From the NCBI GenBank assembly GCA_964500725.1, contig CAZCNP010000004.1, forward strand, positions 12,139 to 76,138: a stretch of 64,000 nt of DNA, written 5' to 3'. How positions within the stretch are numbered: position 1 is the first letter of the stretch; each line of letters begins with the position of its first letter. A program made the translations under genes and the position numbers. The stretch is from an uncultured Gammaproteobacteria bacterium (GTDB lineage: Bacteria; Patescibacteriota; Microgenomatia; Daviesbacterales; UBA10151). Under the pieces are notes generated by a model. That model did no database searches. It saw nothing but the letters and a program-made list of their open reading frames with translations, and was not told the DNA's origin. Below, in pieces: positions 3,155 to 61,384 of the stretch.

Positions 3155-3157
3155 GAG

Positions 3158-3409
3158 TTAATCTTTTAAATAAATTTCATCAATATTTTCAGCAATATTT
3201 TTACCAAACTTCGCGAAACCAGCCATCTTTAATAAAGGATTATTCTTAGCTCTGGTTTTGGCAAGCGCTTTAAGTAATTTAGAATATTGATCAGAGACTC
3301 TCTCTACAACATCCCTGATTATTTGTGAGCGGGACATACCAAGTTCTTTGGCCAAATCAGCCAGGGTGGAAACTGTATTGGGTTTTAAGTAAATCTGATA
3401 TCTTTGCAT
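3158..3409 (-). CDS. ribbon-helix-helix (CopG/VapB-type) antitoxin
   Basis: An 83-aa protein immediately upstream of the PIN gene on the same strand. The N-terminus YQIYLKPNTVSTLADLAKELGMSRSQIIRDVV looks like an RHH fold. Confidence 0.55.
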   Translation of the reverse strand: MQRYQIYLKPNTVSTLADLAKELGMSRSQIIRDVVERVSDQYSKLLKALAKTRAKNNPLLKMAGFAKFGKNIAENIDEIYLKD

Positions 3410-3473
3410 ATATACACCATATCATGAGTGGTGTATATTGTCAAGAGCCATAAGTTGAGCTATCATTGATCAC

Positions 3474-5267: not shown

Positions 5268-6053
5268 TTAATGAGAAAATCCTAACAGCTGAAGAGATGT
5301 TACTGCCAGCCAAATTACCAAAACACCCAACAGCAGAAGTATCGTCTCAAGAAGCGCTACTGCTCTTTTATCTTCATTATGAATTTCTGGTATTAAATCT
5401 GATGCTGCTATATAGATAAAAAACCCAGCAGACAAAGATAGTAAAATAGGCAAAAACACCTCAATTGATTCTCCCACAAGATATGTAAGCAAAGCTCCAA
5501 CTAAGGCTGCCAGGGCACTTAAGAAATTTACCAGTAAAACTTTACTTCTTTTTATACCCCGATGAAGCAATATGCCAAAATCCCCTATTTCTTGAGGTAT
5601 TTCATGAGCTGCCACAGCCAAGGTGGTAACTATACCTAAAGGAATACTTACCAAAAAAGTGGCTGCAATTACTACTCCGTCAATAAAGTTATGCACACTA
5701 TCCCCTAAAATCACCAAAGGCACAATAGATTTGGCCTCTTTTTTTAATTCTGCAGAGGTATGACCATGATGGTGATGAAACCAGTGAATAAATCTTTCAA
5801 GTAAAAAGAAGGATAAAATGCCTATAAGCGTCCAGAGAAAAATATTAGTTCCTCCAAACTCCTCCGCATGTTCTTGCGCTTCGGGAAGCAAATCAAAAAA
5901 AGCTGTTCCAAGCAAAGCTCCAGCTGCAAACGAAGCAAGGTAATGAGATATTCTAATTGCCAGCTTTTCTCTTGCCAGCAATAGCACCCCTCCTACTAAA
6001 GCCACTACACTGCCAAGCAGGGTAAAAATTACAATATATGCCAAAACACTCAT
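5268..6053 (-). CDS. zupT: ZIP family zinc transporter
   Basis: A polytopic membrane protein with the ZIP motifs HNFIDG and HEIPQEIGDFG and a His-rich loop HHHHGH. Confidence 0.8.
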   Translation of the reverse strand: MSVLAYIVIFTLLGSVVALVGGVLLLAREKLAIRISHYLASFAAGALLGTAFFDLLPEAQEHAEEFGGTNIFLWTLIGILSFFLLERFIHWFHHHHGHTSAELKKEAKSIVPLVILGDSVHNFIDGVVIAATFLVSIPLGIVTTLAVAAHEIPQEIGDFGILLHRGIKRSKVLLVNFLSALAALVGALLTYLVGESIEVFLPILLSLSAGFFIYIAASDLIPEIHNEDKRAVALLETILLLLGVLVIWLAVTSLQLLGFSH

Positions 6054-6094: not shown

Positions 6095-6847
6095 CTATTT
6101 TAAAAGAGGGTCTATAATTGCTTGAAAAGCAGAGTAAGGCTGAGCCCCAACTATAATTTGACCTGTGAAAGTACCCGAAGGATCAGATTTGCCAATGAAA
6201 AAAGATGGTGTCCCAGAAACTCCTGCTGTGCTACCATCAGAAGTATCCTTTTTAATCTCCTCTGCATATTTTGAAGAATCTGCGCAAGTTTTTAGAGTTG
6301 TTTGATTAATACCCTCCTCAGCAGCCAACTGGTAAACTTCGTCTTTGGTTAAACCATTTCCGTTAGATTTGGTTTTGGTAAATATGGCATCATGAAAGCT
6401 AAAGTAAGCGCTATCTCCCCCTTGTTCCCTGGCACAATTTGCTGCATTTGCTTCAAAAGTAGCCATGGGTTCATGAAAAGGCAAAGGATAATCCCTAAAA
6501 ACCATTTTAACTTTGCCTGTATCTATATAGTCTTTTTTCAACACAGGATAAACTTGATCAAAGTGTCTTTTACAAAAAGGGCACTCATAATCTGAAAATT
6601 CTACCAAAGTTACTGGAGCATCTTTATCTCCTATAACAGGGTCATCATCAACTGATATTTTAGCTGAGGTAGGTTGTGGGGCTTCCTGTTGAGGAAGGGC
6701 TGAAGCTGCAGGAACATTAGCTTGGGTACCTGCTGTCTTAGAACCTAATTTTATAATTCCTCCATGCATTAATATAGATACAGAAATTACAAAAGAACCT
6801 AGTAAAATTGCCACAGGGGTCGTTAAAAAGGAGCTTGATTTATCCAT
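6095..6847 (-). CDS. DsbA-family thiol:disulfide oxidoreductase (thioredoxin fold), membrane-anchored
   Basis: An N-terminal transmembrane segment is followed by the thioredoxin active site CPFC in the context EFSDYECPFCKR. Confidence 0.75.
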   Translation of the reverse strand: MDKSSSFLTTPVAILLGSFVISVSILMHGGIIKLGSKTAGTQANVPAASALPQQEAPQPTSAKISVDDDPVIGDKDAPVTLVEFSDYECPFCKRHFDQVYPVLKKDYIDTGKVKMVFRDYPLPFHEPMATFEANAANCAREQGGDSAYFSFHDAIFTKTKSNGNGLTKDEVYQLAAEEGINQTTLKTCADSSKYAEEIKKDTSDGSTAGVSGTPSFFIGKSDPSGTFTGQIIVGAQPYSAFQAIIDPLLK

Positions 6848-6917
6848 CGATATCTTAGTTTAAAAGAAGTAATATTTTATGTCAATGCACAGATACAAAT
6901 CTACGATTATTGTCTAT

Positions 6918-7181
6918 TTAGTCACTTAATCGTCTAGCAAGATCCTTAAAATCAATAATAGCGCCTTGCTGTTGTAATGATCCACCAAGTCTATCATCAC
7001 ATTTATTACATATAATTACTCCATCCGGACAAATCTCTTGAGCTTTTGTAGTATCGCGCAACACATCAACCACTTGTTCTGCAGTTAAAGACCTTTCTTG
7101 AACCACCTCACCTGCTAGTCCACTACTTTGACGACATACCCATGTGTGGGAAACTGGTGGTAAACATTTTTCTTTACCCAT
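6918..7181 (-). CDS. hypothetical small Cys-containing protein
   Basis: An 87-aa protein with five cysteines including CNKC. GC content is higher than in the surroundings. Confidence 0.3.
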   Translation of the reverse strand: MGKEKCLPPVSHTWVCRQSSGLAGEVVQERSLTAEQVVDVLRDTTKAQEICPDGVIICNKCDDRLGGSLQQQGAIIDFKDLARRLSD

Positions 7182-7217
7182 AAATATTGATATACTAAAT
7201 TATACTATAAAAGCGCT

Positions 7218-8042
7218 ATGGAAGCATCTTTGCAGTTACCAACTGAGCTTCGAGAAGCATTAACTTCTAGTCCAGTTTTGAGAATAGAAGCTAACGGTTA
7301 TAGAACAAGAGAAATTGTTCCTGTTAGAACCAATGACAAACTGGCTGATTGGCATTCTCTTAAAGGTGAAATTAACGTGGAAAAGGGTCCCCAGAGACAT
7401 TCAACTGATCCAAGTTTTGAAGTACTTTTTGACCCACTGACCCAACGATGGCTCAAGATAGCTCCTCCACATGCTCATCATTTTAATACCTATGTCCACA
7501 AACTCCAACTCAGCTCTCGTATCGGCCGTATTGCCTTGGATATCGCTGGTCTTCCAGATTTAGCAAATCAATTTGAAGATGCTAAAGTTGAAATTCGAGG
7601 AAGAGAAACATTTGGGTTTATATCACCTCATATTGGTCCTTCTTTAGAATATCTGCTTAAAACCTTAAAATCAGGCTCCTCAAAACCTACAGAAGCAAAA
7701 CAATTCTTGACGGCAGTCTATACTCAAGCTTTTTGGCAGGCACTCCGGCTTTATTTAGGTTATGGATTTTGGACTTATGATCCTAATCCAGGTAATATTC
7801 TTATTCGTAATGGTGATAATAAATTATTTATAGCTCCAATAGATTTTTCAAGTCCCGGGCAAGCTAAGGAAAATAAATTCAGCCAAGTGCCCATTATAGA
7901 CCGTAGGAGGCAATACCTACAAAAAAACCTCGATAACCTATACCACATTTTTAATAAGCAATGCGGTATAAATGGAATACCTTCCTTTAGTTACCCAGCC
8001 CAGCAGATAGGCGAGCTTATTGAAATTCAACTTTTATCTTAA
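7218..8042 (+). CDS. hypothetical protein with protein-kinase-like motifs
   Basis: The segment DPNPGNILI resembles a kinase catalytic loop, and a downstream IAPIDFSS resembles a DFG-like segment. GC content is higher than average. The assignment is weak. Confidence 0.4.
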   Translation: MEASLQLPTELREALTSSPVLRIEANGYRTREIVPVRTNDKLADWHSLKGEINVEKGPQRHSTDPSFEVLFDPLTQRWLKIAPPHAHHFNTYVHKLQLSSRIGRIALDIAGLPDLANQFEDAKVEIRGRETFGFISPHIGPSLEYLLKTLKSGSSKPTEAKQFLTAVYTQAFWQALRLYLGYGFWTYDPNPGNILIRNGDNKLFIAPIDFSSPGQAKENKFSQVPIIDRRRQYLQKNLDNLYHIFNKQCGINGIPSFSYPAQQIGELIEIQLLS

Positions 8043-34992: not shown

Positions 34993-35060
34993 AGTGGCTA
35001 GTCGCTAGAGTCTAGAATCAAGCTTGAATTTATTTTCCTAGACTCTTAACTCTAGTCACT
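34993..35060. repeat. short palindromic repeat element (MITE/REP-like), intergenic copy
   Basis: The 5' arm agtggctagtcgctagagtctag and the 3' arm ctagactcttaactctagtcact are imperfect inverted repeats. The 20-mer agtggctagtcgctagagtc is identical to 37723-37742 inside polA. Confidence 0.7.
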
Positions 35061-35863
35061 TAACCCTCCTTTACTGCTTCAATTAATTGCTCAAAACTTA
35101 ATCTAGTTGGTTTGCTATCTGGAGCAGAAGATGAACCACAAATTACCATGTGGTGTGATTGGTGTAGAAACCATGAAGCCTCGGAATCTAACTCTTTTAC
35201 CCTTGTATAAATAGCTTCTATATCTTTATTTGGAGCAAAAAATTGAACTGAGGTATATTTTGGATCATACATTAAATAAAGATCCCCACCCTGCTCCCTG
35301 CAAAATTCCCTATCTACTGTTTCAGAAGAAACTGCAAAAGACTTACCAAATTTGGATTCAAACTCAACCCTTTTTTCCCAATCAATAATTGACTGTTCTC
35401 TCTTTTTCAAAACTTCCAAAATTCTATTTAAGATCTCCTCTCCTAACTCTACCGACTTTAAAGAAGACTCACTAGAATTATCTTTAGTTCTGATAAATGA
35501 TTGAATACTAAACTCATCAAATTGAGAATCTGGAGCTTTTCCTGTATCAATCAATTTATTCCACTCCACCAATTTTTCTAAAGCCTTTTGGGCAATCCCT
35601 TCAGGAATATAGCCTTCTTGTTTTAAATACTCATAAACCAAAGATCCAGCACAGGTTAGCAAACCTTCTTTATGTTCATCAAATTTACCTCCCCCAGTTC
35701 CTAAAAATATTTTGTCTTCATTTTCCTCTTTAGCTGCCAGGTCACGTGATGCAGAAACAAATTCTATTTTTGCCTCTTTAAAATCAGGATGATATTTTTT
35801 AAAAAGCCAAATAGCAGCAATATCATCCAGGTGAGGGTTAATATGTGTAACTAAGGTTTTCAT
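35060..35863 (-). CDS. hypothetical protein (weak DHH-phosphoesterase-like N-terminal motif)
   Basis: The N-terminus THINPHLDDIAAIW resembles DHH motif I. The assignment is not confident. Confidence 0.3.
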   Translation of the reverse strand: MKTLVTHINPHLDDIAAIWLFKKYHPDFKEAKIEFVSASRDLAAKEENEDKIFLGTGGGKFDEHKEGLLTCAGSLVYEYLKQEGYIPEGIAQKALEKLVEWNKLIDTGKAPDSQFDEFSIQSFIRTKDNSSESSLKSVELGEEILNRILEVLKKREQSIIDWEKRVEFESKFGKSFAVSSETVDREFCREQGGDLYLMYDPKYTSVQFFAPNKDIEAIYTRVKELDSEASWFLHQSHHMVICGSSSAPDSKPTRLSFEQLIEAVKEG

Positions 35864-35894: not shown

Positions 35895-36827
35895 ATGCTC
35901 ATACTCAAAAAGCTTATTCTTGCCCCTTTTTTTGCAATTATTTTTGCTCTCTTAATTTATCAGCTTACCAGCTTATTAAAGTCTTACGATTTTGTTTTTT
36001 CTTTATCTTTAAACACTTTTACTAGTCTACTGATTCTGTCTGCTTTAATTTGTCTTTCAAGTTTTTTATTTATTCTATTTGCATCTTTATCGCAAGATTT
36101 AAAAATCACCCTACCGGCTACTTTACTCTTTGCTTTGATACCTTTAATCTTTTTGGATATATCTTTGGCATTAGTTTTGGTTGTGGCAATTTTTGTAAGT
36201 TTACTGCTCGCTAGTTTAAATTTAGCTACTAGTTTGAAAAGTTATTTAACCTTCCAGGCTGGAGATTTACTTGGACCTGCTATTAGACATTTATCAGGCT
36301 TTTTGATTTTATCTTTTTGTATAGTTTATTTTTTATCCTCCAGCAAATTAGTTAGTCAAAATGGATTTCAGATCCCCGATTCTTTAATTGATACTGCCTT
36401 AAAATTTAGTATGCCTGCAATCCCCAATAATCAACTTGATCAAGTACAAACAAGCCTTCCTCAAATCACCCCAGAACAACTAGATCTTTTAAAACAAAAC
36501 CCCGATTTACTAAGACAATCTGGTTTGGATCCTAAAATCCTGGATAGTTTAAGCAACCCACAAAAAAATACTCAATCACCAGCAAATTTAACCAATGACC
36601 TGATTAAACAAACAGTCAAGGATCAGATACAAGGCTTTTTAAAACCCTATCTAAGCTTTATTCCTGCAATTTTAGCAGTCCTGCTTTTTTTAACACTTCA
36701 ATCATTTACTTCTATTATCAATCTTCTAATCTATCCACTTCTCTCAGGAACATTTTATATTTTAGAAAAGTCAGGATTTATCAGGTATGAAACAGAACAA
36801 AGACCAGTCAAAAAAATGGTAGTTTAA
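35895..36827 (+). CDS. hypothetical polytopic membrane protein
   Basis: A 310-aa protein with several transmembrane helices and a Q/P-rich loop. Confidence 0.45.
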   Translation: MLILKKLILAPFFAIIFALLIYQLTSLLKSYDFVFSLSLNTFTSLLILSALICLSSFLFILFASLSQDLKITLPATLLFALIPLIFLDISLALVLVVAIFVSLLLASLNLATSLKSYLTFQAGDLLGPAIRHLSGFLILSFCIVYFLSSSKLVSQNGFQIPDSLIDTALKFSMPAIPNNQLDQVQTSLPQITPEQLDLLKQNPDLLRQSGLDPKILDSLSNPQKNTQSPANLTNDLIKQTVKDQIQGFLKPYLSFIPAILAVLLFLTLQSFTSIINLLIYPLLSGTFYILEKSGFIRYETEQRPVKKMVV

Positions 36828-37270
36828 CCGAACTTTCTAACTAACCTTTTTTTAAACACTGTCTCAAAATCATTATCAAAAGTAGCAAAATATTTAATTT
36901 GATTTTCTCTCATCATAAATAGATGATAAGCATCCCTGGCCCTAAGCTGATATTTTTCCATTAATTTTAGTACTTTTGTTTGTTTTTTAAGCTCAAGTGT
37001 AGAGTGAACTAAATTGATATTCTTAAGTTTCTTAATTTTGCCAAAACCTTTTTTCAAATCCTGTAATGCCTCCTTTTTAGGAAATTGAGAAAATCTTAAA
37101 GCATTATGGAAATATTCATCTAATACTAGCGCGGAAATAAATAATGCCCAATTCTGCAGTAAAAGACTAGATATTAATTCTACCGTCTTTTCGTGAAGCT
37201 CCGCAGACGGATTGGTAAAGTATAATAAAATATTAGTGTCAAGATAGCATTTTTTCATATCTCTCTTCAT
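36824..37270 (-). CDS. vapC: PIN-domain toxin VapC
   Basis: The N-terminus reads CYLDTNILLYF and a C-terminal FATFDNDF motif is present. Confidence 0.8.
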   Translation of the reverse strand: MKRDMKKCYLDTNILLYFTNPSAELHEKTVELISSLLLQNWALFISALVLDEYFHNALRFSQFPKKEALQDLKKGFGKIKKLKNINLVHSTLELKKQTKVLKLMEKYQLRARDAYHLFMMRENQIKYFATFDNDFETVFKKRLVRKFG

Positions 37271-37550: not shown

Positions 37551-39731
37551 TCAAATTGTAAGTGGCTTCATTTCTCCCCAATTAGGACCAATCTTGAGAT
37601 CAACTATTACTGGCACAGAAAGTTTTAGAGCATTTTCCATTTTATCTTTAACCATTTTGGCAGTCTCTTCTACAGATTTAGGATCACATTCAAATAACAG
37701 CTCATCATGAACCTGGAGGATCATCTGACAGGAGTGGCTAGTCGCTAGAGTCGAGAGTCTAGGAGGGGTATTTTCTTGACTCTTGACTCTAGACTCTAGA
37801 CTCTTATCTATTTCCACCATGGCTTTTTTGATCATGTCAGCGCTCGTCCCTTGAATGGGCATATTGACTGCTGCCCTTTCCCCTGCTGCTTTTAAGCTTC
37901 TATTGCCTACCTTTAGTTCTGGAATATATCTTCTTCTGCCCCAGAGAGTTTCTACATAGCCTTTTTCATATCCAAAAGCTAAAGTTTCCTGCATCCATTC
38001 CCTAACTTTGGGAAACTTTAAAAAATACTCAGCAATATATTCTCTGGCCATTTCATAGCTAATACCCAACTGTCTAGATAAAGCATGTGGGCCCTGTCCA
38101 TATAAAGTAGCAAAATTGATTGTTTTTCCTATCATTCTTTGCTGTCTTGTTACCTCATCTATTGGTACATTAAAAATATTGGCAGCAGTTGCAGCATGCA
38201 CATCCAACTCCTGCTCAAAGGCCTTTTTCAAACCTGGATCATCTGCCAAATGTGCCATAATCCTCAGCTCGATTTGGGAATAATCAGCTGCCAGCAAAAT
38301 TTTACCTTTGGGAGCTATAAAAGCTTTTCTAATTTCTCCTCCCATCTCACCTTTAATAGGGATGTTCTGCATGTTCGGATCTTTAGAAGAGAGCCTGCCT
38401 GTGGCTGCCCCTTCTACATTAAAGGTAGAATGGATTCTTCCTTTTTCGTCTGTATACTTTGGCAAAGCATCAATATAGGTGGAAACCAGCTTGAATAGCT
38501 GTCTGTATTCTAAAAGCAAAGGTATTACAGGATGAGCAGCAGATAGTTCATGCAGAGTAGCTTCATCTGTAGAACGGCCTGTTTTAGTCTTTCTTACTAC
38601 TGTTAAATTTAACTCATCAAAAAGTATCTCTGATAACTGCTTTGGACTGTTTATATTAAACTGATGTCCTACTTTTGAGTAAATATCTTGTTCTAAATCA
38701 ACTAATTTATCCTTTAGCTGCTTGCCAAACTTATTTAAAAACTTAAGGTCTATCAATACTCCAGCAGCAGACATTTTTTGCAAAACTTGTTCTACCTGCT
38801 TATCTAATTTAGCTGTCGCTGACAACTCCTCTTTGACAGCAGGCGTTTGATGTGTAAGAGCTGTTCCGCCAGGAATCCTTTCTATTAAGCTTTTAAATTC
38901 TAGCTCCTCAAATAATTTAATAACTTCCTGCTTGTCAAAATCATGCACTATACATTTTTCTAAATCCAAGCTTATAGGGGCTTTTAGATCTAAAGTCGCT
39001 AATTTTTTGCTAAGGGTTGCAGACTCTGCCCCTTCTGCCAATAGAGTCTGCGTTCTTTGGGGCAAAGTCTGTAGATTTTCTGCCTTATAAATTTCCTCTA
39101 CAGTCCCAAATTGGTGTATTAACTTGGTGGCTGTCACCTCTCCAATCCCATTTACCCCAGGAATATTATCTGAAGCATCTCCTGCTAAGCCTTTGTAATC
39201 CACCAGTTGCTTAGGAAAAAAGCCATACTTGGCAACAAATTCTTCTACTCCATACAAACCTACATCGTTAATAGTTTTTTTAGGCATAAATACCTTAATT
39301 TTTTTATCTATAAGCTGCATAATATCCCTATCACCTGTTACTACCACAATCTCTAAATTTTTATCTTTGTCTGCTTGAATAGCTAGTGTGCCAATTAAAT
39401 CATCTGCCTCAAAGCCTGCCAGGCTAAATTCGGGGATATTAAAGGCTTTGACTACTTCATGAACTCTTTTGTATTGGTTGAATAATCCATCATCTGCAGG
39501 ACCTCTAGTGGCTTTATATTGAGTATATGCCTGATGTCTGAAAGTAGGCCCTTTTTCATCCCAGGCAATGGCAATATATTCTGGATGCAGGTCTGAAACT
39601 ACCCGCAAAAGCATGGAAGAAAATCCATAAACAGCATTAACTAACTCCCCTGTTGAGGTAGTAAAAGGAGGTGTAGCATGATATGCCCTGTGAAGCAGGG
39701 CATTTCCATCAACCAAAACCAGTCTTTGCAT
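37551..39731 (-). CDS. polA: DNA polymerase I (5'-3' exonuclease plus polymerase domains)
   Basis: The N-terminus reads LVLVDGNALLHRAYHA. Motif C reads QVHDELLFE. The protein is 726 aa and carries an in-frame repeat-element insertion just before motif C. Confidence 0.95.
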   Translation of the reverse strand: MQRLVLVDGNALLHRAYHATPPFTTSTGELVNAVYGFSSMLLRVVSDLHPEYIAIAWDEKGPTFRHQAYTQYKATRGPADDGLFNQYKRVHEVVKAFNIPEFSLAGFEADDLIGTLAIQADKDKNLEIVVVTGDRDIMQLIDKKIKVFMPKKTINDVGLYGVEEFVAKYGFFPKQLVDYKGLAGDASDNIPGVNGIGEVTATKLIHQFGTVEEIYKAENLQTLPQRTQTLLAEGAESATLSKKLATLDLKAPISLDLEKCIVHDFDKQEVIKLFEELEFKSLIERIPGGTALTHQTPAVKEELSATAKLDKQVEQVLQKMSAAGVLIDLKFLNKFGKQLKDKLVDLEQDIYSKVGHQFNINSPKQLSEILFDELNLTVVRKTKTGRSTDEATLHELSAAHPVIPLLLEYRQLFKLVSTYIDALPKYTDEKGRIHSTFNVEGAATGRLSSKDPNMQNIPIKGEMGGEIRKAFIAPKGKILLAADYSQIELRIMAHLADDPGLKKAFEQELDVHAATAANIFNVPIDEVTRQQRMIGKTINFATLYGQGPHALSRQLGISYEMAREYIAEYFLKFPKVREWMQETLAFGYEKGYVETLWGRRRYIPELKVGNRSLKAAGERAAVNMPIQGTSADMIKKAMVEIDKSLESRVKSQENTPPRLSTLATSHSCQMILQVHDELLFECDPKSVEETAKMVKDKMENALKLSVPVIVDLKIGPNWGEMKPLTI
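37723..37796. repeat. short palindromic repeat element, intragenic in-frame copy within polA
   Basis: The 20-mer matches 34993-35012 exactly. Palindromic arms are built from ctagactc/gagtctag units. The element encodes an extra segment, roughly RVKSQENTPPRLSTLATSHS, in the PolA protein. Confidence 0.7.
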
Positions 39732-45718: not shown

Positions 45719-47563
45719 CTACTTCTTTTTTCCTACTATTTTTTCAAACTCATCAGATTCCAGGGTCTCTTTCTCTAGAAGTTGCTTGGCAACAGCATCA
45801 AGCTTTGTTTTATATTTTCTGAGTAAAGCTTGGGCTTGAGAATAACCCGCATCCATAATCTTTTTTATCTCTGCATCTACTGCGTCATGCATTTTTGGAG
45901 ACATCTCTCCTCCCTCATCCATCCCTCTCCATATCCCAAACATTGGCCTTGGGTTTATACTAAGAGGGCCTAAAGAGGACATTCCATATTGAGTTACCAT
46001 TGCTCTGGCAATATTGGTCGCAACTTCGATATCAGAAGCTGCTCCGGTAGAAATATCTTTAAATATTAAGTTTTCAGCTGCCTGCCCACCTAAGGCAGCA
46101 GTAATTTGCTCCACCAAACGGGATTTGCTTTCGTTTGACCTATCCTCTGTGGGAGGGAATAATGTGTGTCCCCCAGACATACCTCTGGAAACAATAGAAA
46201 TACGGTGGACTGGATCAACATTTTTCAAAAAGTGGCCAACAACAGCATGCCCTGCCTCATGGTAAGCTGCCAATTTTCTATCACGCTCAGACTGCATCCT
46301 CTTTCTTTGTGGACCTAATTTTTCCTTTGTTGCAGCTTCTTCCAAATCTTTATTATCTATGGCAGTTTTACCTTCCCTGGCTGCTAAAATTGCTGCCTCA
46401 TTTAGCATATTAGCCAAATCTGCTCCGGAAAACCCTACAGTTCTTCTGGCTAGTTTTTCAGTTGAAACTTCTTTGGTAAAAGGTTTACCCTTCATATGCA
46501 GTTCAATAATGGCTTTTCTTTCCTGCAAATCAGGCAAAGACAGCATCACTCGCCTGTCAAAACGCCCTGGCCTTATCAACGCTGCATCTAGCAAATCTGG
46601 CCTATTCGTAGCAGCAATAATAATCACCCGATCATTAGGAGTAAACCCGTCCATTTCCACTAAAATCTGATTTAAGGTTTGCTCTCTTTCATCATGTCCT
46701 CCAGAAATTCCCATACCTCTTTGTCTACCAATTGATTCAATCTCATCCACAAAAATAATAGCTGGGGCTGCCTTTTTGGCCTGGGCAAACATATCCCTAA
46801 CCCTAGCTGCTCCAACTCCAACTAACATTTCCATAAACTCTGACCCTGCTATAGAGAAAAATGGCACTCCAGCCTCCCCTGCTATTGCGCGCGCCAATAA
46901 AGTCTTTCCAACACCCGCCGGACCAACTAAAAGCACTCCTCTTGGGATTCTGGCTCCTAAAGCCTTAAATTTATCTGGGGTTTTAAGAAATTCCACTATC
47001 TCAGAAAGCTCTTTTTTGGCTTCTTCTGCTCCTGCTACATCTGTAAACTTGATTTGTGGCTGGTCTTTAGTAAACAACCTGGCTCTGCTTTGGGCAAAGG
47101 AAAAAATACCCTGGGCTCCTTCCCTGGCATTCCTAAAAAGCAAAAACATCAGTCCCACCAGTATCAAAATTGGCAAAACTGCTGATAAAATCCCAATCCA
47201 AGCCTGCTGTAAAGACAGGTCTTTCACTTCAATAGTCACAGTTTTGGGATCTACCCCTGAGGATTCCAATATTTTATAAATTGATTCTCCAGCTTCTTTA
47301 CGAGATATAAGCTTTTGATCAGAACCTTTTACCTCAGCTGTAATTTTATCCCCTTCTAAAGAGATCTTTTGGACTTTTCCTTCTTTGACATCAGAAACTA
47401 TTTGAGAAATAGGAACTTCATTGCTTAAAGAGGTGGAAGGACTCCCTGAAACTTGGTAGAAGAAAATCAAGGCAGCCACAGCAATTAGGATATAAACAAT
47501 CAAGCCCTTAAAAATGGAAAAGAATTTTTTATTTAGGTTAATTTTCCTCTTGCCATTTGCCAT
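45719..47563 (-). CDS. ftsH: ATP-dependent zinc metalloprotease FtsH
   Basis: A transmembrane N-terminus is followed by the AAA Walker [24 protein letters not shown], an SRH region and the zinc motif HEAGHAVV. Confidence 0.95.
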
Positions 47564-47603
47564 AATACCGGCAATTTTAGCACACTGGAGGTTAAATCGC
47601 TAG

Positions 47604-47924
47604 CTACCGGATTTTTGATCCTGGAGGAACTTTTTGGGATGGTTTTAGGAAAATAGGTTTGTTGTTATCTGCGCACAAAATCATCCCTTGAGACTCTAAA
47701 CCCATCATCATCCTTGGTTCTAAATTAGCTACCACAACCGCTTGTTTGCCTTTCAAATCTTCGCTCTTATACCATTGTTTTATGCCTGCCAGAATCTGTC
47801 TAGGTTGTTCTTCCCCTAAATCCACCTTTAGTTTAATTAGTTTCTCAGATCCTTCTATATCCTCTGCCTCCAGAACAGTACCAACTTTTAATTCAACCTT
47901 GGCAAAGTCTTCTATTGCAATCAT
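47604..47924 (-). CDS. tRNA-binding domain protein (CsaA / EMAP-II-like)
   Basis: The segment FAKVELKVGTVLEAE is typical of the OB-fold tRNA-binding domain. Confidence 0.7.
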   Translation of the reverse strand: MIAIEDFAKVELKVGTVLEAEDIEGSEKLIKLKVDLGEEQPRQILAGIKQWYKSEDLKGKQAVVVANLEPRMMMGLESQGMILCADNNKPIFLKPSQKVPPGSKIR

Positions 47925-48274
47925 AGTTGCTCCAACCCTAATACTAATTTCACTGCTTCTTCCACTTCTTGCAGCTTACTTTTGGAGATCTGCCCAATCT
48001 TTTTAATTAAACGATCCTGATCAATACTTCTAATAAGTACTGGCACTAAAACAGAGTGCTCATCAAAACCTCTTGGTTTGCCTAAATCTATGATCTCGGA
48101 AGTATAAGAAACAGGCACTATTGAACTACTCGGTATAACAATTACATGATATGTACCTTGATTAACGCTGTTATCCGAAATTATTAGAGCAGGTCGTTTT
48201 TTATGAATTTCCCTACCAAATGCAGGCTCTAAATTAACTACCCAAAATTCCCCTCTTGTAATTAGTTTGGCCAT
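47921..48274 (-). CDS. mazF: MazF/PemK-family endoribonuclease toxin
   Basis: The segment RGEFWVVNLEPAFGREIHKKRPALIIS is MazF/PemK-like. Confidence 0.8.
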   Translation of the reverse strand: MAKLITRGEFWVVNLEPAFGREIHKKRPALIISDNSVNQGTYHVIVIPSSSIVPVSYTSEIIDLGKPRGFDEHSVLVPVLIRSIDQDRLIKKIGQISKSKLQEVEEAVKLVLGLEQL

Positions 48275-48492
48275 CCTTCAATCTCAGTAGCTTTCCACTC
48301 TTCAGCAATTTTTTTATAAAAGTCTCTATTAATTTTTAAACTTTTAATAAGCTCTTTTTTAAGATTTCTCTTGGGTAACTTTTCTCTAACAGCATTTGCT
48401 ATAAACTTGCTTCTTTTTTTAGCAGGAATAGCCCTTTTCAGGTCTCTAGCCAATTCATATGGTAAAGTAATATTTAATCTTTGAGCTTGCAT
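48262..48492 (-). CDS. antitoxin (RHH/MazE-like) of the MazF pair
   Basis: A 76-aa protein whose N-terminus NITLPYELARDLKRAIP looks RHH-like. It overlaps the mazF start. Confidence 0.5.
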   Translation of the reverse strand: MQAQRLNITLPYELARDLKRAIPAKKRSKFIANAVREKLPKRNLKKELIKSLKINRDFYKKIAEEWKATEIEGWPN

Positions 48493-48528
48493 AATTCACC
48501 CTCCTTAATACACACTAATTATACACAC

Positions 48529-49524
48529 TTATTTAAAGTAGTCAAGTTTCATGGCCTTTTTAACTTCAGCCAAAGTCTTTTGGGCTTCTGCCCGGGCTTT
48601 GTCAGTTCCCTCTTTTAATATCTTTTCTACCAATTCTGGCTGGGTTTCATATTCAGCTCTCTTTTTTCTAATTGGATCCAAGAAATTATTTAAAACTTGG
48701 ACTAGATATTTTTTTACCTCAATATCCCCTACTTGGCCCCTTGAGTAAAGTAGTTTGTAGTTCGTAGTTTGTAGTTGGTCGCTCTCAGACCCAAAAGCAT
48801 CAAGATATATAAAAACAGGGTTTCCCTCTACATGTCCTGGGTCTGTAGCTTTTATTCTAGTAGGGTCTGTATACATACTCATCACTTTTTTTTCTACTTC
48901 CTCAGTTGAATCAGTTAAAAAAATGGCATTATTTAAAGATTTTCCCATTTTAGCTTGGCCATCTATACCTGGTAAAGTTGGCACCTCCCCTATCAAAGGT
49001 TCAGGGATAGGAAAAACTTCTCCATAAGTGCTATTAAACTTAATGGCAATATCCCTAGCATATTCCACATGAGCTTTTTGGTCTTTTCCTACAGGCACTA
49101 GATTAGCCCGAGGAAGCAAAATATCTGCAGCCATTAAAACTGGGTAATAAAATAAACCCACAGTATCTTCAGACCCTTGGTCTAATTTTTCCTTTAAAGC
49201 AGGCTGCCTGGCAATCAAAGCTCTAGGGGTTAAAACACTTAAAAAATAAGCCAGCTCTAACACTTCTGGAACTTGGGATTGGATAAAAAAGGTAACTTTA
49301 TTAGGATCTAACCCCACAGATAAATACCCTAACATCAATCCTTTAATATTTTCTTCCAGCTGATCTGCTTTATTAAAATGAGTAGTCAGAGCATGGAGAT
49401 CTACCAAGGGTATAAACATTTCATACTCATCTTGCAGTTTAACCCTATTTTTTAAAGAACCAATGTAATTACCCAGATGAAAACTATCATTGGTAGGCCT
49501 ATCCCCTGTTAAAATCCGTTTCAT
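48529..49524 (-). CDS. trpS: tryptophan--tRNA ligase
   Basis: A class I HIGH-like signature TGDRPTNDSFHLGNYIG is present, with the KMGKS-like KMGKSLNNA. It contains an in-frame heptamer-repeat insertion. Confidence 0.95.
   Translation of the reverse strand: MKRILTGDRPTNDSFHLGNYIGSLKNRVKLQDEYEMFIPLVDLHALTTHFNKADQLEENIKGLMLGYLSVGLDPNKVTFFIQSQVPEVLELAYFLSVLTPRALIARQPALKEKLDQGSEDTVGLFYYPVLMAADILLPRANLVPVGKDQKAHVEYARDIAIKFNSTYGEVFPIPEPLIGEVPTLPGIDGQAKMGKSLNNAIFLTDSTEEVEKKVMSMYTDPTRIKATDPGHVEGNPVFIYLDAFGSESDQLQTTNYKLLYSRGQVGDIEVKKYLVQVLNNFLDPIRKKRAEYETQPELVEKILKEGTDKARAEAQKTLAEVKKAMKLDYFK
48749..48780. repeat. tandem heptamer repeat (AGTTNGT)x4 inside trpS, in frame
   Basis: The sequence is agtagtttgtagttcgtagtttgtagttggtc. 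A 23-mer is identical to GT4 gene positions 34216-34238. It encodes the segment ...QLQTTNYKLLYS.... Confidence 0.8.
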
Positions 49525-49970
49525 GATTTATTTCCTTTTACCATATCTTCTTTAATTAGCTCTTCGGCAAGCTTCAACCCTTGTTTGGTATAAAAACCAT
49601 CATAGGTAAATACACCATCAGCTTTAATTTTTTTAGCAACAACTGCTACTGAACAATCAATTAGCGTATTTTTCTTGCTTCCCTTAGGATTAAATAGCGC
49701 AGCTGAGTTCTTTAAAATACCCTCATCAACAATATGAACTAACAATTGGTCATTTTTAATCATCTCAATAAGCTGAGTAGTTACCGCAGGTGACGGTAAC
49801 ACACGTTGAAATAGTGATATTATTTCAAAAAGTACTGAAGTGGGATAAATAAGCTTAAAACTTTGGGCAATTAATTGCTCAAATGTCCTGGTTGCTTTAG
49901 GATTTAGTGGATCGTTAGGATTATATAAAGCAAAAATAGCATCTGAGTCAACTACCACAGCTTTAACCAT
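49521..49970 (-). CDS. PIN-domain toxin (VapC-like)
   Basis: The N-terminal acidic-residue context VVVDSDAIFAL is followed by a second conserved D context. It lies downstream of a Phd-type antitoxin gene. Confidence 0.65.
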   Translation of the reverse strand: MVKAVVVDSDAIFALYNPNDPLNPKATRTFEQLIAQSFKLIYPTSVLFEIISLFQRVLPSPAVTTQLIEMIKNDQLLVHIVDEGILKNSAALFNPKGSKKNTLIDCSVAVVAKKIKADGVFTYDGFYTKQGLKLAEELIKEDMVKGNKS

Positions 49971-50238
49971 ATAATATACTGTCTGCCCTTTCGCGCAAAT
50001 CAGATGGTAAACTTTTCAACTGCTCTCTGCTGTCACTTGCTAATTTAAGCATATCTAAAGAAGCCTGCAAAGCCTTAGTTTGCTTCAGTTTCTCTAAATC
50101 CTCGAGGCTAATAATTGCGGCTTGAGGCTTATTGTTAGTAGTTAAAACTACTGCATGTTTTTTGGTCTTAACAGCTTCAATGATAGATTTATAAGACTTC
50201 TGCAGATTTCTGGCTGGCATAGTATGGGTATTTAACAT
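49963..50238 (-). CDS. Phd/YefM-type antitoxin
   Basis: A 91-aa protein with a Phd-like N-terminus. It overlaps the downstream PIN gene. Confidence 0.6.
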   Translation of the reverse strand: MLNTHTMPARNLQKSYKSIIEAVKTKKHAVVLTTNNKPQAAIISLEDLEKLKQTKALQASLDMLKLASDSREQLKSLPSDLRERADSILYG

Positions 50239-50265
50239 AGTAACATGCTACCAAATATGATATCA

Positions 50266-50295
50266 TTTGTCAATATCAATAAGCAATATCATTCA
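50266..50295. promoter_or_regulatory. putative promoter/operator of the Phd-PIN operon (copy 1)
   Basis: The sequence tttgtcaatatcaataagcaatatcattca contains the direct repeat CAATATCA twice. It is 29/30 identical to 50999-51028, upstream of the second Phd-PIN operon. Confidence 0.5.
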
Positions 50296-50326
50296 TTTGT
50301 AAGCCTATCCCCTGTAAGAATTCTTT

Positions 50327-50710
50327 TCACGCTAATTTTAACCCTTGTATCCTTTTAAAATGATTCATATTCCTAGTTAGTAATGTTAGATTATTTTCCA
50401 GAGCAACTGAGGCAATCAAAAGGTCAAAATCTTCCAGTCGTTTCCCATCCTTTTCCAACTCAGCTTTGATTTTACCAAATTCTATCATAATCTCATCATT
50501 TAGATTTAACATACCAAGATTAAGTATATTCAAAGTATATTTTAACAGTTCATAGGATTTTGTTGGATTATCTGATTTATAAACACCATATAATAATTCC
50601 CCCAAAGTAATAATACTAATTGCTGCTCCTTTTTCTAGGATATCTTTATCAAGGAATTTTTTCTTTCTTAAATGATCAACTAGAATATCTGTATCAAGTA
50701 AGTATTTCAT
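50327..50710 (-). CDS. vapC: PIN-domain toxin VapC
   Basis: The N-terminus reads KYLLDTDILVDHL and a C-terminal LLTRNMNHF motif is present. Confidence 0.8.
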   Translation of the reverse strand: MKYLLDTDILVDHLRKKKFLDKDILEKGAAISIITLGELLYGVYKSDNPTKSYELLKYTLNILNLGMLNLNDEIMIEFGKIKAELEKDGKRLEDFDLLIASVALENNLTLLTRNMNHFKRIQGLKLA

Positions 50711-50968
50711 CTACAAAAGAGGTGGGATCTTTCTCCTACGGGAATGACGGAACTTGGTAACATCAGGAAAATCAGGTAAAATCCCAAAAGTGGCATCAAG
50801 CGCCTTTTTAATATCCATTTTACCCGTCTTTGGCTTTTTAACAGGCACAATCTCGGCAATAGGTTTACCATGTTTTTCTATTATAGTGACTGTTTCATTA
50901 TAGTAGACTGAATTTAACACTGCAGAAAGTTTATTTTTCAGTTCAGTAGCGGAAATTGTGTTAATCAT
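50711..50968 (-). CDS. Phd/YefM-type antitoxin
   Basis: An 85-aa protein that directly abuts the PIN gene. The N-terminus ISATELKNKLSAVL is Phd-like. Confidence 0.6.
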   Translation of the reverse strand: MINTISATELKNKLSAVLNSVYYNETVTIIEKHGKPIAEIVPVKKPKTGKMDIKKALDATFGILPDFPDVTKFRHSRRRKIPPLL

Positions 50969-50998
50969 AATATATACATTTTAGCCAAAATGGCCATT

Positions 50999-51028
50999 TT
51001 TGTCAATATCAGTAAGCAATATCATTCA
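50999..51028. promoter_or_regulatory. putative promoter/operator of the Phd-PIN operon (copy 2)
   Basis: The sequence tttgtcaatatcagtaagcaatatcattca is a near-identical copy of 50266-50295. Confidence 0.5.
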
Positions 51029-51098
51029 GAACCAATATAATAGCTAAAAGATATCGCCTGGGGATAAAAATACGAGGTTTCAATACTCTCTTAAATTA

Positions 51099-51584
51099 TC
51101 AGATTACACTGTCAATTTTTATACCTATGTTAGGCGGAGTTTCAGGACAGGCTAGCCTACAGGGTAAACCTAATCTTCTTCCTATTTCGGTTTTTATTTC
51201 TTGAAGGCGTATATTAAAAAAGCTGCCAGCGAAGATCACTTCCCGATCTCGCTCCTCCCTGCTTATAGGAGAAACTGCGCATTCTTGTAGGACCACTCCA
51301 CCGCCGATAACATGGCTCGGTGTAAGAGCTTCAACCTCTCTCACAGGGTATGTATTAGCTTCGAACTGTCCTGTCTCTGGATTAATATCTAAGGCTTGAA
51401 AAAAATCACCCTCTTGTGAGACTACTAGGGTCGACCGTACGCCAGCAAGCCTACCAGCTAAGAATTGATAAACTCTAAAGGGCCTCCCTGAATCTATACC
51501 CTGTCTTAACATTACTGACTCGAGCTCTTGTCTATTCAGAACTTGAGTTACCCTAGGTCTTTCATTTACTAATCTATCTACCAT
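51099..51584 (-). CDS. hypothetical protein in a GC-rich islet
   Basis: A 161-aa ORF with markedly higher GC than the surroundings. No motif was recognised. Confidence 0.4.
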   Translation of the reverse strand: MVDRLVNERPRVTQVLNRQELESVMLRQGIDSGRPFRVYQFLAGRLAGVRSTLVVSQEGDFFQALDINPETGQFEANTYPVREVEALTPSHVIGGGVVLQECAVSPISREERDREVIFAGSFFNIRLQEIKTEIGRRLGLPCRLACPETPPNIGIKIDSVI

Positions 51585-51861
51585 AATATTCTCCTTAAAT
51601 TGTCATTTAGACAACTTAACCCACAAAAAAACCGCTCCTATTTTTGAAGCGGCTTGAGTAGAAAAATTCCTTTTTTCAAGGTTTTCCTCATTCAAACCAC
51701 TCTTCAGTAATGAAGAGGTGCCTAAGTAATTTAAAGCTGTAAACAAATATATTCATATTTACTTTAACAATAATCATATCGTTAAAAGCTTATCAATACT
51801 AATATTATGCTATAGGTTCTACCCAAAGTCAAGTGGTTGTGGTATATTTAGGCCTCAAATT

Positions 51862-52866
51862 ATGCTGGCTGTTTTAAAAGAAAAAAAAGCTCCTGGTGTA
51901 ACAATTACTGATGTACCTATTCCTGAGCCCCAAAAAGATGAAGTGCTGGTTAAAATTATCTATGCTTCAATTTGTGGAACAGATATAGGGATCTATGACT
52001 GGATTCCTTGGGCTGCAGCCCATATTAAGCCTCCAACCATAATTGGCCATGAAATAGTAGGAAAAGTCGTTCAAGTAAATAGCAACACCAAAACAGACCT
52101 TAAAGCAGGAGACCTTGTTTCTTCAGAAACTCATATTTTTTGTTTAAATTGTTATCAATGTATGATTAAAAACTATCATATCTGCGAGAATATGAACCTG
52201 TTTGGCATTGGCAGGGAGGGTGGTTTTGCCCAATATGCCACTATCCCCTTGCGAACTACCTGGAAAAATGATCCCAAAATCCCAGTTGAGTTTATGAGTG
52301 TACAAGAGCCTTTAGGCAATGCTGTTCATTGTGTTACCAAAGCAGGAGTAAAGAACAAAAAAGTCTTAGTAATGGGTTTAGGACCAGTTGGACTTTGCGC
52401 TGGAGCAGTTAGCAAAGCTATGGGAGCCAAAGAGGTAGTTGGAATAAATGATGAGCCTTACAGAAGAAAAATTGCCAAGAAAATGGGTTTTGACAGAATT
52501 TTAGGCAAGCTGCCAGAAAAAGAGTATGGTAGTTTTGATGTAGTTTTGGAAATGAGTGGCAATAGATTAGGTATAGATGTGGCCTTTGATGCAGCCAGAA
52601 TTGGGGGTAAATTTGTGGCCTTTGGGATCCCTAAAGAATCAGTCACTATTGATTGGGGCAAATATATGATCAACAAAGAGCTAACTATTTTATCTGTATT
52701 TGGCAGAAGGCTGTGGGAAACTTGGAGACAAACCAGCCAACTTTTAAAGTCAAATAAAATAAATCTTGCTCCCCTAATTACCCACAAATTTGCTTTAAAA
52801 GATTTTGAAAAAGCTATGGCCCTTATGAAAAGTAGAAGGTGTGGTAAAATCCTGCTCAAACCGTAG
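51862..52866 (+). CDS. tdh: L-threonine 3-dehydrogenase (zinc-dependent MDR family)
   Basis: The zinc site CGTD appears as [13 protein letters not shown], with GHE further on. It is followed by kbl, the classic tdh-kbl pairing. Confidence 0.8.
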
Positions 52867-60484: not shown

Positions 60485-61384
60485 TTGACATCTATAACCT
60501 ATAACATTATAATATGTATTATGATTACTCTACGCGATGCACACCAGCAATTCATTGGACACCTTAAAGGCAAATCCAGAGCCTCAGCTACTATCTTAGC
60601 TTATGGCAAAGACATTGATCAACTGGTAAGCTATTTACAAGACTTGGGCAAAACAGATCCAAAAAGTGTAACAACTGAGGATTTAGTAGCTTTTATGCAA
60701 AAGTTGAGCAAAGAAGACTACACCCCAAAATCAATCTCTAGAAAAACTAACTCTACTAAAACCTTCTTCAAATATTTAAAAACATCAAACATTATTGATG
60801 CTGACCCAGCCACTAACTTAGAACACCCAAAATTTGAAAATAAACCCCCTAGGATTTTAACCAAATTAGAATACCGCAGTCTGCGCGATGCAGCCAGAGC
60901 AGATACTAGAATGATAGCAGTTATAGAATTGCTTTTACAAACTGGCATTAGAATTGGAGAACTTGCCAAACTCAGGGTTGAGGATATTGATTTGGAAAAC
61001 CTCACACTTCATGTTCCCCTATTTGAAGACACCAGAGAAAGAACTATCCCATTAAATAAATCAGCAGCTGAAGCCATTAAAAATTACCTTCCCAAAAGAG
61101 CAAAAACTCCAAATCATGCCCTTTTTGTCACCAAAACTGGCAGACCTTTACTTATTAGAAATATCAGAACTGCCATTGATAGATACTTTAGGGTAGCTGG
61201 TATTAAAGGAGCTAAAGTTAATGATTTAAGACACACTTGGGTAGCTTTTCAATTACAAGCAGGTGTTCCTATGACTATGGTTTCAAAACTTGCAGGTCAC
61301 AAAAGACTCTCCACCACTGAAAAATACCTTCAATTTATCCAGGGACAAACAGTTGAAGGTAAAGTCAAATTAGAAGAGCTTTAA
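60485..61384 (+). CDS. tyrosine recombinase (XerC/XerD-like, phage-integrase family)
   Basis: The catalytic region reads LRHTWVAFQLQAGVPMTMVSKLAGHKRLSTTEKYLQ, with R, H..R and Y. An N-terminal SAM-like domain is present. Confidence 0.85.
   Translation: MTSITYNIIICIMITLRDAHQQFIGHLKGKSRASATILAYGKDIDQLVSYLQDLGKTDPKSVTTEDLVAFMQKLSKEDYTPKSISRKTNSTKTFFKYLKTSNIIDADPATNLEHPKFENKPPRILTKLEYRSLRDAARADTRMIAVIELLLQTGIRIGELAKLRVEDIDLENLTLHVPLFEDTRERTIPLNKSAAEAIKNYLPKRAKTPNHALFVTKTGRPLLIRNIRTAIDRYFRVAGIKGAKVNDLRHTWVAFQLQAGVPMTMVSKLAGHKRLSTTEKYLQFIQGQTVEGKVKLEEL

Follow-up and report, generated by a model that had tools for sequence, protein, structure and literature searches.

Toxin–antitoxin operons stacked upstream of trpS in a Daviesbacterales genome: an inferred recombination-built cassette array at a recurrent insertion point

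Integron cassette arrays, including the toxin–antitoxin (TA) cassettes of chromosomal superintegrons, consist mostly of promoterless cassettes and involve a common Pc promoter, attC sites, and the integrase IntI. Genomic islands and prophages that enter the terminus of a tRNA or protein gene bring a substitute for that terminus with them, leaving attL/attR direct repeats. Cis-mobilizable elements (CIMEs), which lack an integrase, accrete beside integrative and conjugative elements (ICEs) at a shared attachment site, and this accretion depends on the ICE integrase and a fixed att core. Here we describe a locus with partial likeness to each of these systems. It lies in a 64-kb stretch of contig CAZCNP010000004.1 (assembly GCA_964500725.1, forward-strand positions 12,139 to 76,138; GTDB lineage Patescibacteriota, Daviesbacterales), the whole of which was analyzed and is called the window below. 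Two unrelated type II TA operons stand head to tail in this window, immediately upstream of the essential gene trpS and in the same orientation as trpS, and a short duplicate of the trpS 5' end lies between them. In the literature we found neither an account of TA cassettes flanked by duplicated gene termini nor any mention of trpS as a hotspot for TA genes. We infer that the trpS locus is a cassette stack built by recombination at such a hotspot.

The trpS locus resembles an integron array in having small cassettes in one orientation at one fixed site, with the newest usually beside the insertion point and TA pairs as cargo. Unlike an integron, it has no IntI, attI, or attC, and each cassette has its own sigma-70-like promoter, which is conserved within its family. 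In addition, its boundary repeats are the target gene's own 5' end, vary in length, and mark an insertion point inside the coding start of an essential gene. The integron-cassette-like accumulation suggested by the initial annotation of this DNA, which was made from the sequence alone, is therefore apt for the modular, ordered stacking, as the scar recurs with other cargo, and not for the defining integron features. The stack is integron-like in outcome, but it is not an integron.

Other described systems are also similar in part. As with gene-end islands and prophages, a duplicated gene terminus flanks the insert, and the functional gene is restored with a dead fragment on the far side; unlike those elements, the trpS-locus inserts are only 0.6–1.4 kb, have no integrase in or near them, and show variable repeat end points with no common core among targets. 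Unrelated elements in tandem, separated by copies of the attachment sequence, recall CIME accretion, but neither an ICE integrase nor a fixed att core was seen at the trpS locus. Unlike transposons, insertion sequences, and miniature inverted-repeat transposable elements, the trpS cassettes showed no terminal inverted repeats, transposase, or fixed-length target-site duplication. The operons themselves are organized like Phd/YefM-VapC operons with autoregulated promoters, with the antitoxin gene first, overlapping or abutting genes, Phd_YefM and PIN domains, and palindromic boxes over the -35 and -10 elements. They differ in that the gene of an essential aminoacyl-tRNA synthetase has its start codon fused to a toxin stop codon, and one promoter appears chimeric. 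Autoregulation of both operons through antitoxin binding to operator repeats is putative, and is suggested by conserved boxes (Phd1) and a palindrome (Phd2). Finally, the locus resembles the products of homology-facilitated illegitimate recombination, in which one homologous anchor is combined with one illegitimate join of the microhomology type (3–10 bp) and no dedicated recombinase is needed, and of single-crossover insertion-duplication during DNA uptake, in which part of the target gene is duplicated on both sides of the insert (PMC3240628). The duplications reported there span 109–950 bp and classical events delete recipient DNA (PMC3240628), whereas trpS-type duplications span 17–53 nt, always include the gene terminus, and recur at one site in nature.

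All genes relevant to the cassette locus are on the minus strand. The features of the locus, in order of transcription, are as follows.

51099-51584, minus strand: gene for a 161-aa hypothetical protein
51029-51098, minus strand: 70-nt spacer separating the 161-aa gene from 30-mer B, which may be an older trpS 5' remnant in decay (weak gapped alignment)
50999-51028, minus strand: 30-mer B, read as a chimeric junction (29/30 identical to 30-mer A)
50978-51006, minus strand: predicted core promoter of Phd2 (promoter scan 11/12)
50711-50968, minus strand: Phd2, Phd/YefM antitoxin of the outer cassette, abutting PIN2 (PF02604, 3e-9; 54 homologues)
50327-50710, minus strand: PIN2, VapC-like PIN toxin of the outer cassette (PF01850, 3e-14)
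50289-50330, minus strand: trpS' remnant R, with a GTG start, 13 codons (VKRILTGDRLTNE), and then a stop (repeat copy proper, 50293-50330)
50266-50295, minus strand: 30-mer A
50245-50295, minus strand: predicted promoter/operator of Phd1 (promoter scan 10/12, extended TG)
49963-50238, minus strand: Phd1, Phd/YefM antitoxin of the inner cassette, with an 8-nt overlap with PIN1 (PF02604, 3e-11)
49521-49970, minus strand: PIN1, VapC-like PIN-domain toxin of the inner cassette (PF01850, 1.6e-5; 25.9 bits, cut-off 23.6)
49487-49524, minus strand: true copy of the direct repeat, the first 38 nt of trpS (direct-repeat search)
48529-49524, minus strand: trpS, tryptophan-tRNA ligase, 331 aa (PF00579, 4e-66; 100% match to a Candidatus Daviesbacteria protein)

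Downstream of trpS follow a small ribbon-helix-helix-like open reading frame (ORF) with MazF, a tRNA-binding-domain gene, and ftsH. The presence of two different Phd/PIN pairs, as first annotated, was borne out: PF02604 and PF01850 matches were found in both, the PF02604 scores of Phd1 and Phd2 both exceed the gathering score, and the antitoxin gene lies directly upstream of the toxin gene in each. Phd1 and Phd2 gave no alignment, and similarity between PIN1 and PIN2 was undetectable apart from a C-terminal QGLKLA. We considered this shared string as a possible trace of recombination and rejected it, as it is a family-level C-terminal motif that is also present in other PIN2 homologues. PIN1 had 415 homologues at E ≤ 1e-20, and the best 120 of these 415 were 72–81% identical. 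The TGA stop of PIN1 overlaps the ATG of trpS (ATGA), and the TGA stop of PIN2 overlaps the GTG of the remnant (GTGA).

Both sets of repeats reported in the initial annotation are real. The near-identical 30-mers, TTTGTCAATATCA[A/G]TAAGCAATATCATTCA, are present at 50266-50295 and 50999-51028 and agree at 29 of 30 positions. They are the only two matches in the window when up to three mismatches are allowed, and 100 shuffles gave no match; in a direct-repeat search, the similarity around them extended, more weakly, to 53 nt at 77%. The duplicate of the trpS 5' end is equally clear, with 84% identity over 37 nt between 49487-49523 and 50293-50329 and start codons at 49522-49524 (ATG) and 50328-50330 (GTG). 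The dead fragment VKRILTGDRLTNE* reads as had been described, with the correction that it starts at 50330 and not at 50333, and its stop codon (50289-50291) falls inside 30-mer A. The arrangement is not an assembly artefact: exact sharing between repeat copies reaches only 13–16 nt at its longest, not enough to produce a misassembly, and the same arrangement recurs in independent assemblies, namely contig JACQIW010000017.1 of the Candidatus Daviesbacteria metagenome-assembled genome GCA_016198315.1 (NCBI) and independent Logan contigs from several sequencing runs. For comparison with relatives, 80 trpS loci were fetched from GTDB species genomes, and L-numbers below denote fetched loci or contigs. 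The exact 30-mer was sought in 82 trpS loci and was present in this genome only, and a relaxed search of these loci with a 24-mer core retrieved a homologue in L017.

The 30-mers appear to be promoter sequence. On the transcribed strand the 30-mer reads TGAATGATATTGCTTAYTGATATTGACAAA and holds the -35 hexamer of the two best sigma-70-like sites of the region, which are the two cassette promoters (11/12 and 10/12), each facing trpS. The Phd1 promoter has a -10 element (TAGCAT, 50245-50250), a -35 element (TTGACA, 50268-50273), and three 8-bp boxes, TGATATCA at 50258-50265 and TGATATTG at 50271-50278 and at 50284-50291. The CAATATCA direct repeat noted earlier within the 30-mer corresponds to boxes 1 and 2 read on the other strand. 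To define the family promoter, 56 metagenome loci of PIN1 homologues were fetched, and 30 distinct loci entered the consensus. This consensus, TGATATCa.TtatTGATATTGACAAaTGATATaAt, contains three copies of the 8-bp palindrome TGATATCA, 13–14 nt apart, around the -35, and its conservation begins exactly at the first box. We take the 30-mer to be the native promoter/operator of a Phd1-type cassette, with an operator role for the TGATATCA boxes suggested by their conservation.

The Phd2 promoter has a different structure. Its -35 (TTGACA, 51001-51006) and -10 (TAAAAT, 50978-50983) lie around the palindrome AAAATGGCCATTTT at 50987-51000, which is the probable Phd2 operator. The Phd2-family promoter, TTGACAAAAATGTACATTTTGGCTAAAATG, with a palindrome of 14–16 bp between -35 and -10, is conserved in L148, L152, L153, L154, and L006. 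These promoters resemble the window sequence only from the -35 onward, and the preceding 22 nt are absent from all five. Because these 22 nt are absent from other Phd2-type promoters and present in the Phd1 family, 30-mer B is best read as a chimeric junction, in which Phd1-type upstream sequence with boxes 1 and 2 (TGATATTG at 51004-51011 and 51017-51024) is fused at the common -35, TTGACAAA, to the Phd2 promoter, and not as a native Phd2 operator. The idea that the 30-mer is an operator shared by two antitoxins did not survive this comparison, as the 30-mer appears specific to the Phd1 family. Most simply, 30-mer B would be left over from a previous cassette of the Phd1 type, the body of which gave way to Phd2-PIN2 when the two were joined at the shared -35. 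This interpretation predicts an older trpS remnant farther upstream, and the 70-nt spacer (51029-51098) shows a gapped resemblance to trpS nt 1–70 (TGAAAC..ATTTT.A..CAGGCGATA ... ATTATATTGGTTC) that 1–4% of shuffles or random window segments equalled. The chimeric promoter could put Phd2-PIN2 under Phd1 cross-regulation, provided that Phd1 still binds the boxes.

The arrangement also has consequences for trpS expression. We found no trpS-specific promoter-like site of comparable quality, and the scan gave no minus-strand terminator-like site between 51629 and 47400, so trpS is probably transcribed from the TA promoters; it is also probably translationally coupled to PIN1. An Rfam scan of 47000-52500 for leader, T-box, and other RNA elements was empty.

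Insertions at the trpS start were not limited to the window, and this site is a repeatedly used insertion point in Daviesbacteria/Microgenomates, with varied cargo. A position weight matrix scan, in which remnant R scored 30.9 bits, returned eight hits of at least 12 bits, all on the trpS strand and at most 1.4 kb upstream of trpS, and none elsewhere in ~1.8 Mb (both strands counted). At least 14 related genomes or contigs contained remnants of the trpS 5' end, and the cargo was BrnT/BrnA, Phd-PIN, or Phd-ParE. Intact KRILTGDRP remnants lie 53–1359 nt upstream of the true trpS (L017, L023, L024, L025, L033, L049, and L052), and shorter remnants are cut after ATTTTAAC (L055, L058, and L059). 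The space between remnant and trpS holds BrnT/BrnA, Phd-PIN, or nothing, and Phd-ParE, MazE-PIN, and other pairs are found farther upstream; the cargo families were BrnT, CopG/BrnA, ParE, Phd, PIN, and MazE. The final gene of the cassette always ends on the trpS ATG or immediately beside it, and BrnTA cassettes begin at their own -35.

The newest cassette is usually nearest to trpS, and older ones are displaced upstream, each with a remnant behind it. L118/L119 contain a two-remnant stack in the order remnant, Phd1-PIN1, remnant, BrnTA, trpS, and L105 likewise holds two remnants. L058 has Phd-ParE, remnant, BrnTA, and trpS, and the same Phd-ParE stands directly before an intact trpS in L011, L006, and L039. 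Gene 3' ends are used as well: BrnTA-type cassettes occur at the 3' end of trpS (L059, L014, and L050) and of a SucD-like gene (L052 and L055), with the last 27–53 nt of the gene repeated beyond the cassette, after BrnA, and with the TTGA of the cassette -35 providing the new stop codon of the upstream gene. The BrnT/BrnA coordinates at these 3' ends are 7004-7722 (L059), 6408-7144 (L014), 6984-7432 (L050), 2853-3507 (L052), and 1451-2109 (L055).

We also observed a short GC-rich element (CCTTCGAC..CTCAGGGCAAG and variants) inside or right after remnants in L105 (~1545-1650), L058 (~5395-5450), L024 (5060-5100), and L025 (5940-5995). It splits the L105 remnant between TTAAC and CAGGGG, and an in-frame PSASSGQ insertion in the TrpS of L006 may be the same kind of element.

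Comparison with relatives, which the initial annotation had proposed as a check, both recovered remnants in related loci and found Phd2-PIN2 coupled to an intact trpS. Phd1-PIN1 is probably the later arrival in the window, because relatives carry this direct coupling of Phd2-PIN2. In L148 (Phd2 87% identical) and L154, the stop codon of the PIN2 homologue overlaps the ATG of an intact trpS, as at the PIN2/remnant junction of the window, and L153 has the same PIN2 junction followed by a 30-nt remnant and a BrnT/BrnA cassette. L017/L121 and L105 lack Phd2-PIN2 and still have a remnant next to box 1, as does L118, where the remnant is shorter. These comparisons strongly support the order in which Phd2-PIN2 came first and Phd1-PIN1 later. 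In this history, Phd2-PIN2 would have been coupled directly to trpS, its stop overlapping the trpS start; the Phd1-PIN1 cassette, from operator boxes to stop codon, would then have entered trpS at about codon 13; and the old trpS start would have been stranded behind PIN2 as a 38-nt remnant, with a complete trpS 5' end following PIN1. Of the two origins first offered for the repeat, insertion of a TA cassette at the trpS 5' end with a duplicated dead start left behind agrees with this history, and a simple duplication in place does not, given the mostly synonymous differences and the recombination breakpoint described below.

Differences between the copies suggest that recombination between lineages contributed to the locus. 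Across eight loci, the remnant and true trpS copies differ by 32 synonymous and 6 nonsynonymous codon changes. This excess suggests that both copies evolved within working trpS genes, and it is a poor fit to duplication in place followed by decay. Between the window and L084, nucleotide identity is 87–100% over Phd1-PIN1 and 50–72% from exactly the trpS ATG, with patches of higher identity farther downstream. L036 has 98% identity in PIN1, 92% in FtsH, and 91% in MazF, yet 68% in TrpS, and L083 has 95% in PIN1 and 98% in Phd1, yet 64% in TrpS. Together, the synonymous bias and the breakpoint at the cassette/trpS boundary point to import from other lineages, and whole trpS alleles seem to have been swapped by recombination.

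We note that three types of TrpS occur behind near-identical or homologous cassettes (L036, L083/L084, L148, and L154 compared with window 48529-49524), all after an invariant MKRILTGDRP. Type 1 continues as ..PTxDSFHLGNY, type 2 as ..PTGKLHLGHY, and the third, canonical type as ..SGIQPSGNLHIGNY.

Signs of dedicated insertion machinery were sought at several levels. The remnants end at codons 5, 6, 8, 10–11, or 13, with variable filler, and the duplications (17–53 nt) share no core sequence between different targets. No inverted repeats, including attC-like or terminal ones, were found at cassette borders in 49300-51200, and the 88-nt PIN2-Phd1 spacer is wholly explained by remnant and promoter. 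The inserts contain TA genes only; no fixed-length duplication was found, the ORFs scanned included no transposase, and a search for an IntI-type integrase found no recombinase among the scanned ORFs on either side of the cassettes. The only tyrosine recombinase of the window is a Xer-like protein of 299 aa (60485-61384, plus strand), 9.5 kb away. It scored 71 bits against the integron integrase model TIGR02249 (cut-off 265), and its best matches were Xer models, below all curated XerA/XerC/XerD cut-offs. Orthologues are found near trpS in loci with and without cassettes, and lie 3.5–5.5 kb from trpS in L009, L015, L019, L025, L033, L034, L046, and L053. A scan of 2.9 million viral contigs with the Phd1 operator and the BrnT promoter gave no hits.

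We propose that a rare illegitimate join would first create the order remnant, cassette, trpS with no element-encoded recombinase, and that only outcomes with an intact essential gene would survive, which would favor short terminus duplications. The arrangement would then spread between lineages by homologous recombination, the left arm being the conserved first ~30 nt of trpS paired with a donor remnant and the right arm trpS paired with trpS. Such recombination would add a new cassette beside trpS while resident cassettes stay upstream, and the same conserved 5' block would also permit swaps of whole trpS alleles. Short strings in common may be read at some junctions (TGA/AATGA, AACT-TTGAC, and TTGACAAA). 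Illegitimate joining followed by homologous spread is consistent with the evidence and not proven. Taken as a whole, an ordered TA stack that arose by illegitimate joining, spread by homologous recombination, and needed no dedicated recombinase is the explanation that we consider probable, with considerable room for doubt.

Several observations weigh against this explanation. We found no pair of near-identical strains with an empty and a filled site, and the founding events are unobserved. L017 has the order remnant, Phd1-PIN1, BrnTA, trpS, with no remnant between the cassettes, which would need an extra deletion or a join inside the PIN1 3' end. The junction microhomology (AATGA, trpS codons 12–13 against the Phd1 box region; AACT/TTGAC, for BrnTA) is only suggestive. 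All remnants are at most 23 codons long, a shortness that random illegitimate joining does not predict and that needs an added assumption, either that joins fall near the homology boundary or that long remnants are counter-selected. A left arm of 30–40 nt is also short for RecA-type recombination. Flanking direct repeats were sought at ~40 Phd1-PIN1 loci outside trpS and gave noise-level matches only; most Phd1-PIN1 homologues elsewhere in metagenomes have no flanking duplication, so the signature is not general to that cassette. Operator function of the boxes is judged from their conservation, and the proposed origin of 30-mer B is likewise tentative, with the older remnant that it predicts upstream weakly detectable (p about 0.01–0.04).

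The same repeats could have formed in the reverse order. Phd1-PIN1 would already have been coupled to trpS, and a fragment comprising the Phd2 core promoter, Phd2, PIN2, and the first 41 nt of a donor trpS would have inserted into the Phd1 promoter, duplicating 30 nt of target (18–22 nt plus the common -35 microhomology); the 30-mer would be the insertion scar and the trpS fragment a passenger with PIN2. This sequence of events explains both repeats at once, and it agrees with the near-identity of the 30-mers and the sharp end of similarity on both outer sides, which a recent duplication of the target should show. Suitable donors, in which PIN2 is coupled to trpS, are known (L148 and L154), and both joins could be microhomology-mediated, given TTGACAAA in both promoter families and TGA/AATGA at the right junction. 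We nevertheless rate it lower and consider it unlikely, because it turns the adjacency of remnant and box 1, seen independently where Phd2-PIN2 is absent, into a coincidence. Both 30-mers also start 4 nt before the natural left edge of Phd1-family conservation, which fits cassette edges and not an arbitrary duplication boundary, and L153 and L118 show the usual pattern, with the trpS-proximal cassette after a remnant coupled to an older toxin. A tandem duplication in place, in which the duplicated unit held 30-mer, TA pair, and first ~40 nt of trpS and one pair was later replaced or diverged extremely, would account for the A-B-C-A'-B'-C' pattern of two different repeats at similar spacing (733 and 806 nt). 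We regard it as very unlikely, since no similarity was detected between the two TA pairs, which represent separate families with separately conserved promoters; Phd2-type cassettes also occur alone in coupling with trpS, the remnant-Phd1 junction is found in genomes without Phd2, and a dead copy left to decay where it arose would not be expected to differ mostly at synonymous sites. A last reading, as a chance resemblance of AT-rich sequences or a chimeric assembly of two strains, has the low genome G+C content in its favor and nothing further, and we give it practically no credence in light of the shuffles without a match to the 30-mer, the restriction of remnant-type hits to the trpS strand upstream of trpS, and the shortness of exact shared stretches in an arrangement that recurs in independent assemblies.

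A different possibility is that a site-specific recombinase acting in trans stacks cassettes at an attachment site within the first ~10 trpS codons, with the remnants as attL/attR-type repeats, in the manner of integron cassettes or of integrase-less accretion at an ICE site. Candidates would be the Xer-like enzyme at 60485-61384 or the integrase of a mobile element off these contigs. In its favor, the inserted DNA lies between direct repeats of a gene end, as is the case for islands targeting the ends of tRNA or protein genes; at least four types of cargo have used the one site, the newest beside trpS; remnant and true copy often agree fully in the block ACNGGGGATAGGCC; and a tyrosine recombinase gene lies 4–10 kb from trpS in several genomes. 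However, the remnants stop at different points between codons 5 and 13 and their filler differs, the duplications at the trpS and SucD-like 3' ends have no core in common with the trpS 5' site, and the cassettes span exactly from -35/operator to stop codon without shared arm sequence or inverted repeats. The enzyme itself falls below all curated cut-offs and far below that of the integron integrase, its orthologue is found in loci both with and without cassettes, and neither cassette promoter sequence occurred in the viral contigs. On balance, we find a recombinase in trans quite unlikely. A bolder proposal is that the minimal TA operons of candidate phyla radiation (CPR) bacteria (BrnT/BrnA, Phd-VapC, and Phd-ParE) act as autonomous insertion cassettes, extending exactly from -35/operator to stop codon, through an undescribed mechanism that targets conserved-gene termini and leaves variable duplications of 17–53 nt. 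We hold this to be unlikely; if true, there would be integron-like, time-ordered stacks without an integrase, and essential genes such as trpS would depend on TA promoters.

The surroundings of the locus contain further TA genes and repeats. A third TA pair lies directly 3' of trpS.

47921-48492, minus strand: ribbon-helix-helix-like ORF (48262-48492) and MazF/PemK toxin (47921-48274; PF02452, 9e-21)

The MazF/PemK stop codon overlaps the start of the tRNA-binding-domain gene, and a Pfam search with the putative antitoxin ORF (48262-48492) gave no hit. A promoter-like site for this pair (48518-48545, minus strand, TTGACT-16-TATAAT, 11/12) has its -35 within the last conserved trpS codons (KLDYF), and the cassette appears to start between its -35 and -10. 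A duplication flanking this cassette in the window was searched for and is absent. At the other end of the locus, the 161-aa protein matched no Pfam or NCBIfam family, has no homologue in other trpS loci, and is not homologous to the ORF at the equivalent position in L153; its ORF sits between an alcohol-dehydrogenase-like gene and the cassettes and may itself be cargo. A further PIN-domain gene (36824-37270, minus strand; PF01850, 2e-14) adjoins polA, with a small antitoxin-like gene seemingly just upstream on the minus strand. A search for other short flanking repeats across the window turned up only an unrelated palindromic element of ~75 nt (AGTGGCTAGTCGCTAGAGTC.AGA...CTAGACTCT...), present at 34993-35070 and 37733-37805. 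The second copy is inside the ORF of DNA polymerase I (37551-39731, minus strand), where it seems to form an in-frame insertion.

Other genes also neighbor trpS in relatives. A Trp-repressor-like gene (PF01371, 1.5e-20) lies upstream of trpS in L013, L050, L057, and L059, and a YbaK-like tRNA_edit gene (PF04073) in L019, L020, L025, L051, and L073; the end of the latter overlaps the trpS start in its loci, and a TrpS in the database carries that domain as a fusion. In L006, L010, L011, L015, L026, L031, and L048, the FtsH match falls into two blocks ~0.5–1.3 kb apart, which suggests an insertion, possibly an intein, in the ftsH of several relatives; the window ftsH is uninterrupted.

The movement of chromosomal TA modules that are not borne by plasmids, phages, or transposons is poorly understood. 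The trpS loci offer an unusually clean record of it, with exact cassette edges, scars that give the order of arrival, and repeated use of one site in many lineages of CPR bacteria, whose genomes are small and hold few mobile elements of the classical kinds. The first 30 nt of trpS, which are conserved, seem to be a natural docking sequence for the exchange of both cassettes and whole trpS alleles. In the window, an essential aminoacyl-tRNA synthetase gene stands behind the putatively autoregulated promoters of TA operons and is probably translationally coupled to them. This arrangement may make the cassettes hard to lose, and it may tie trpS expression to TA regulation.

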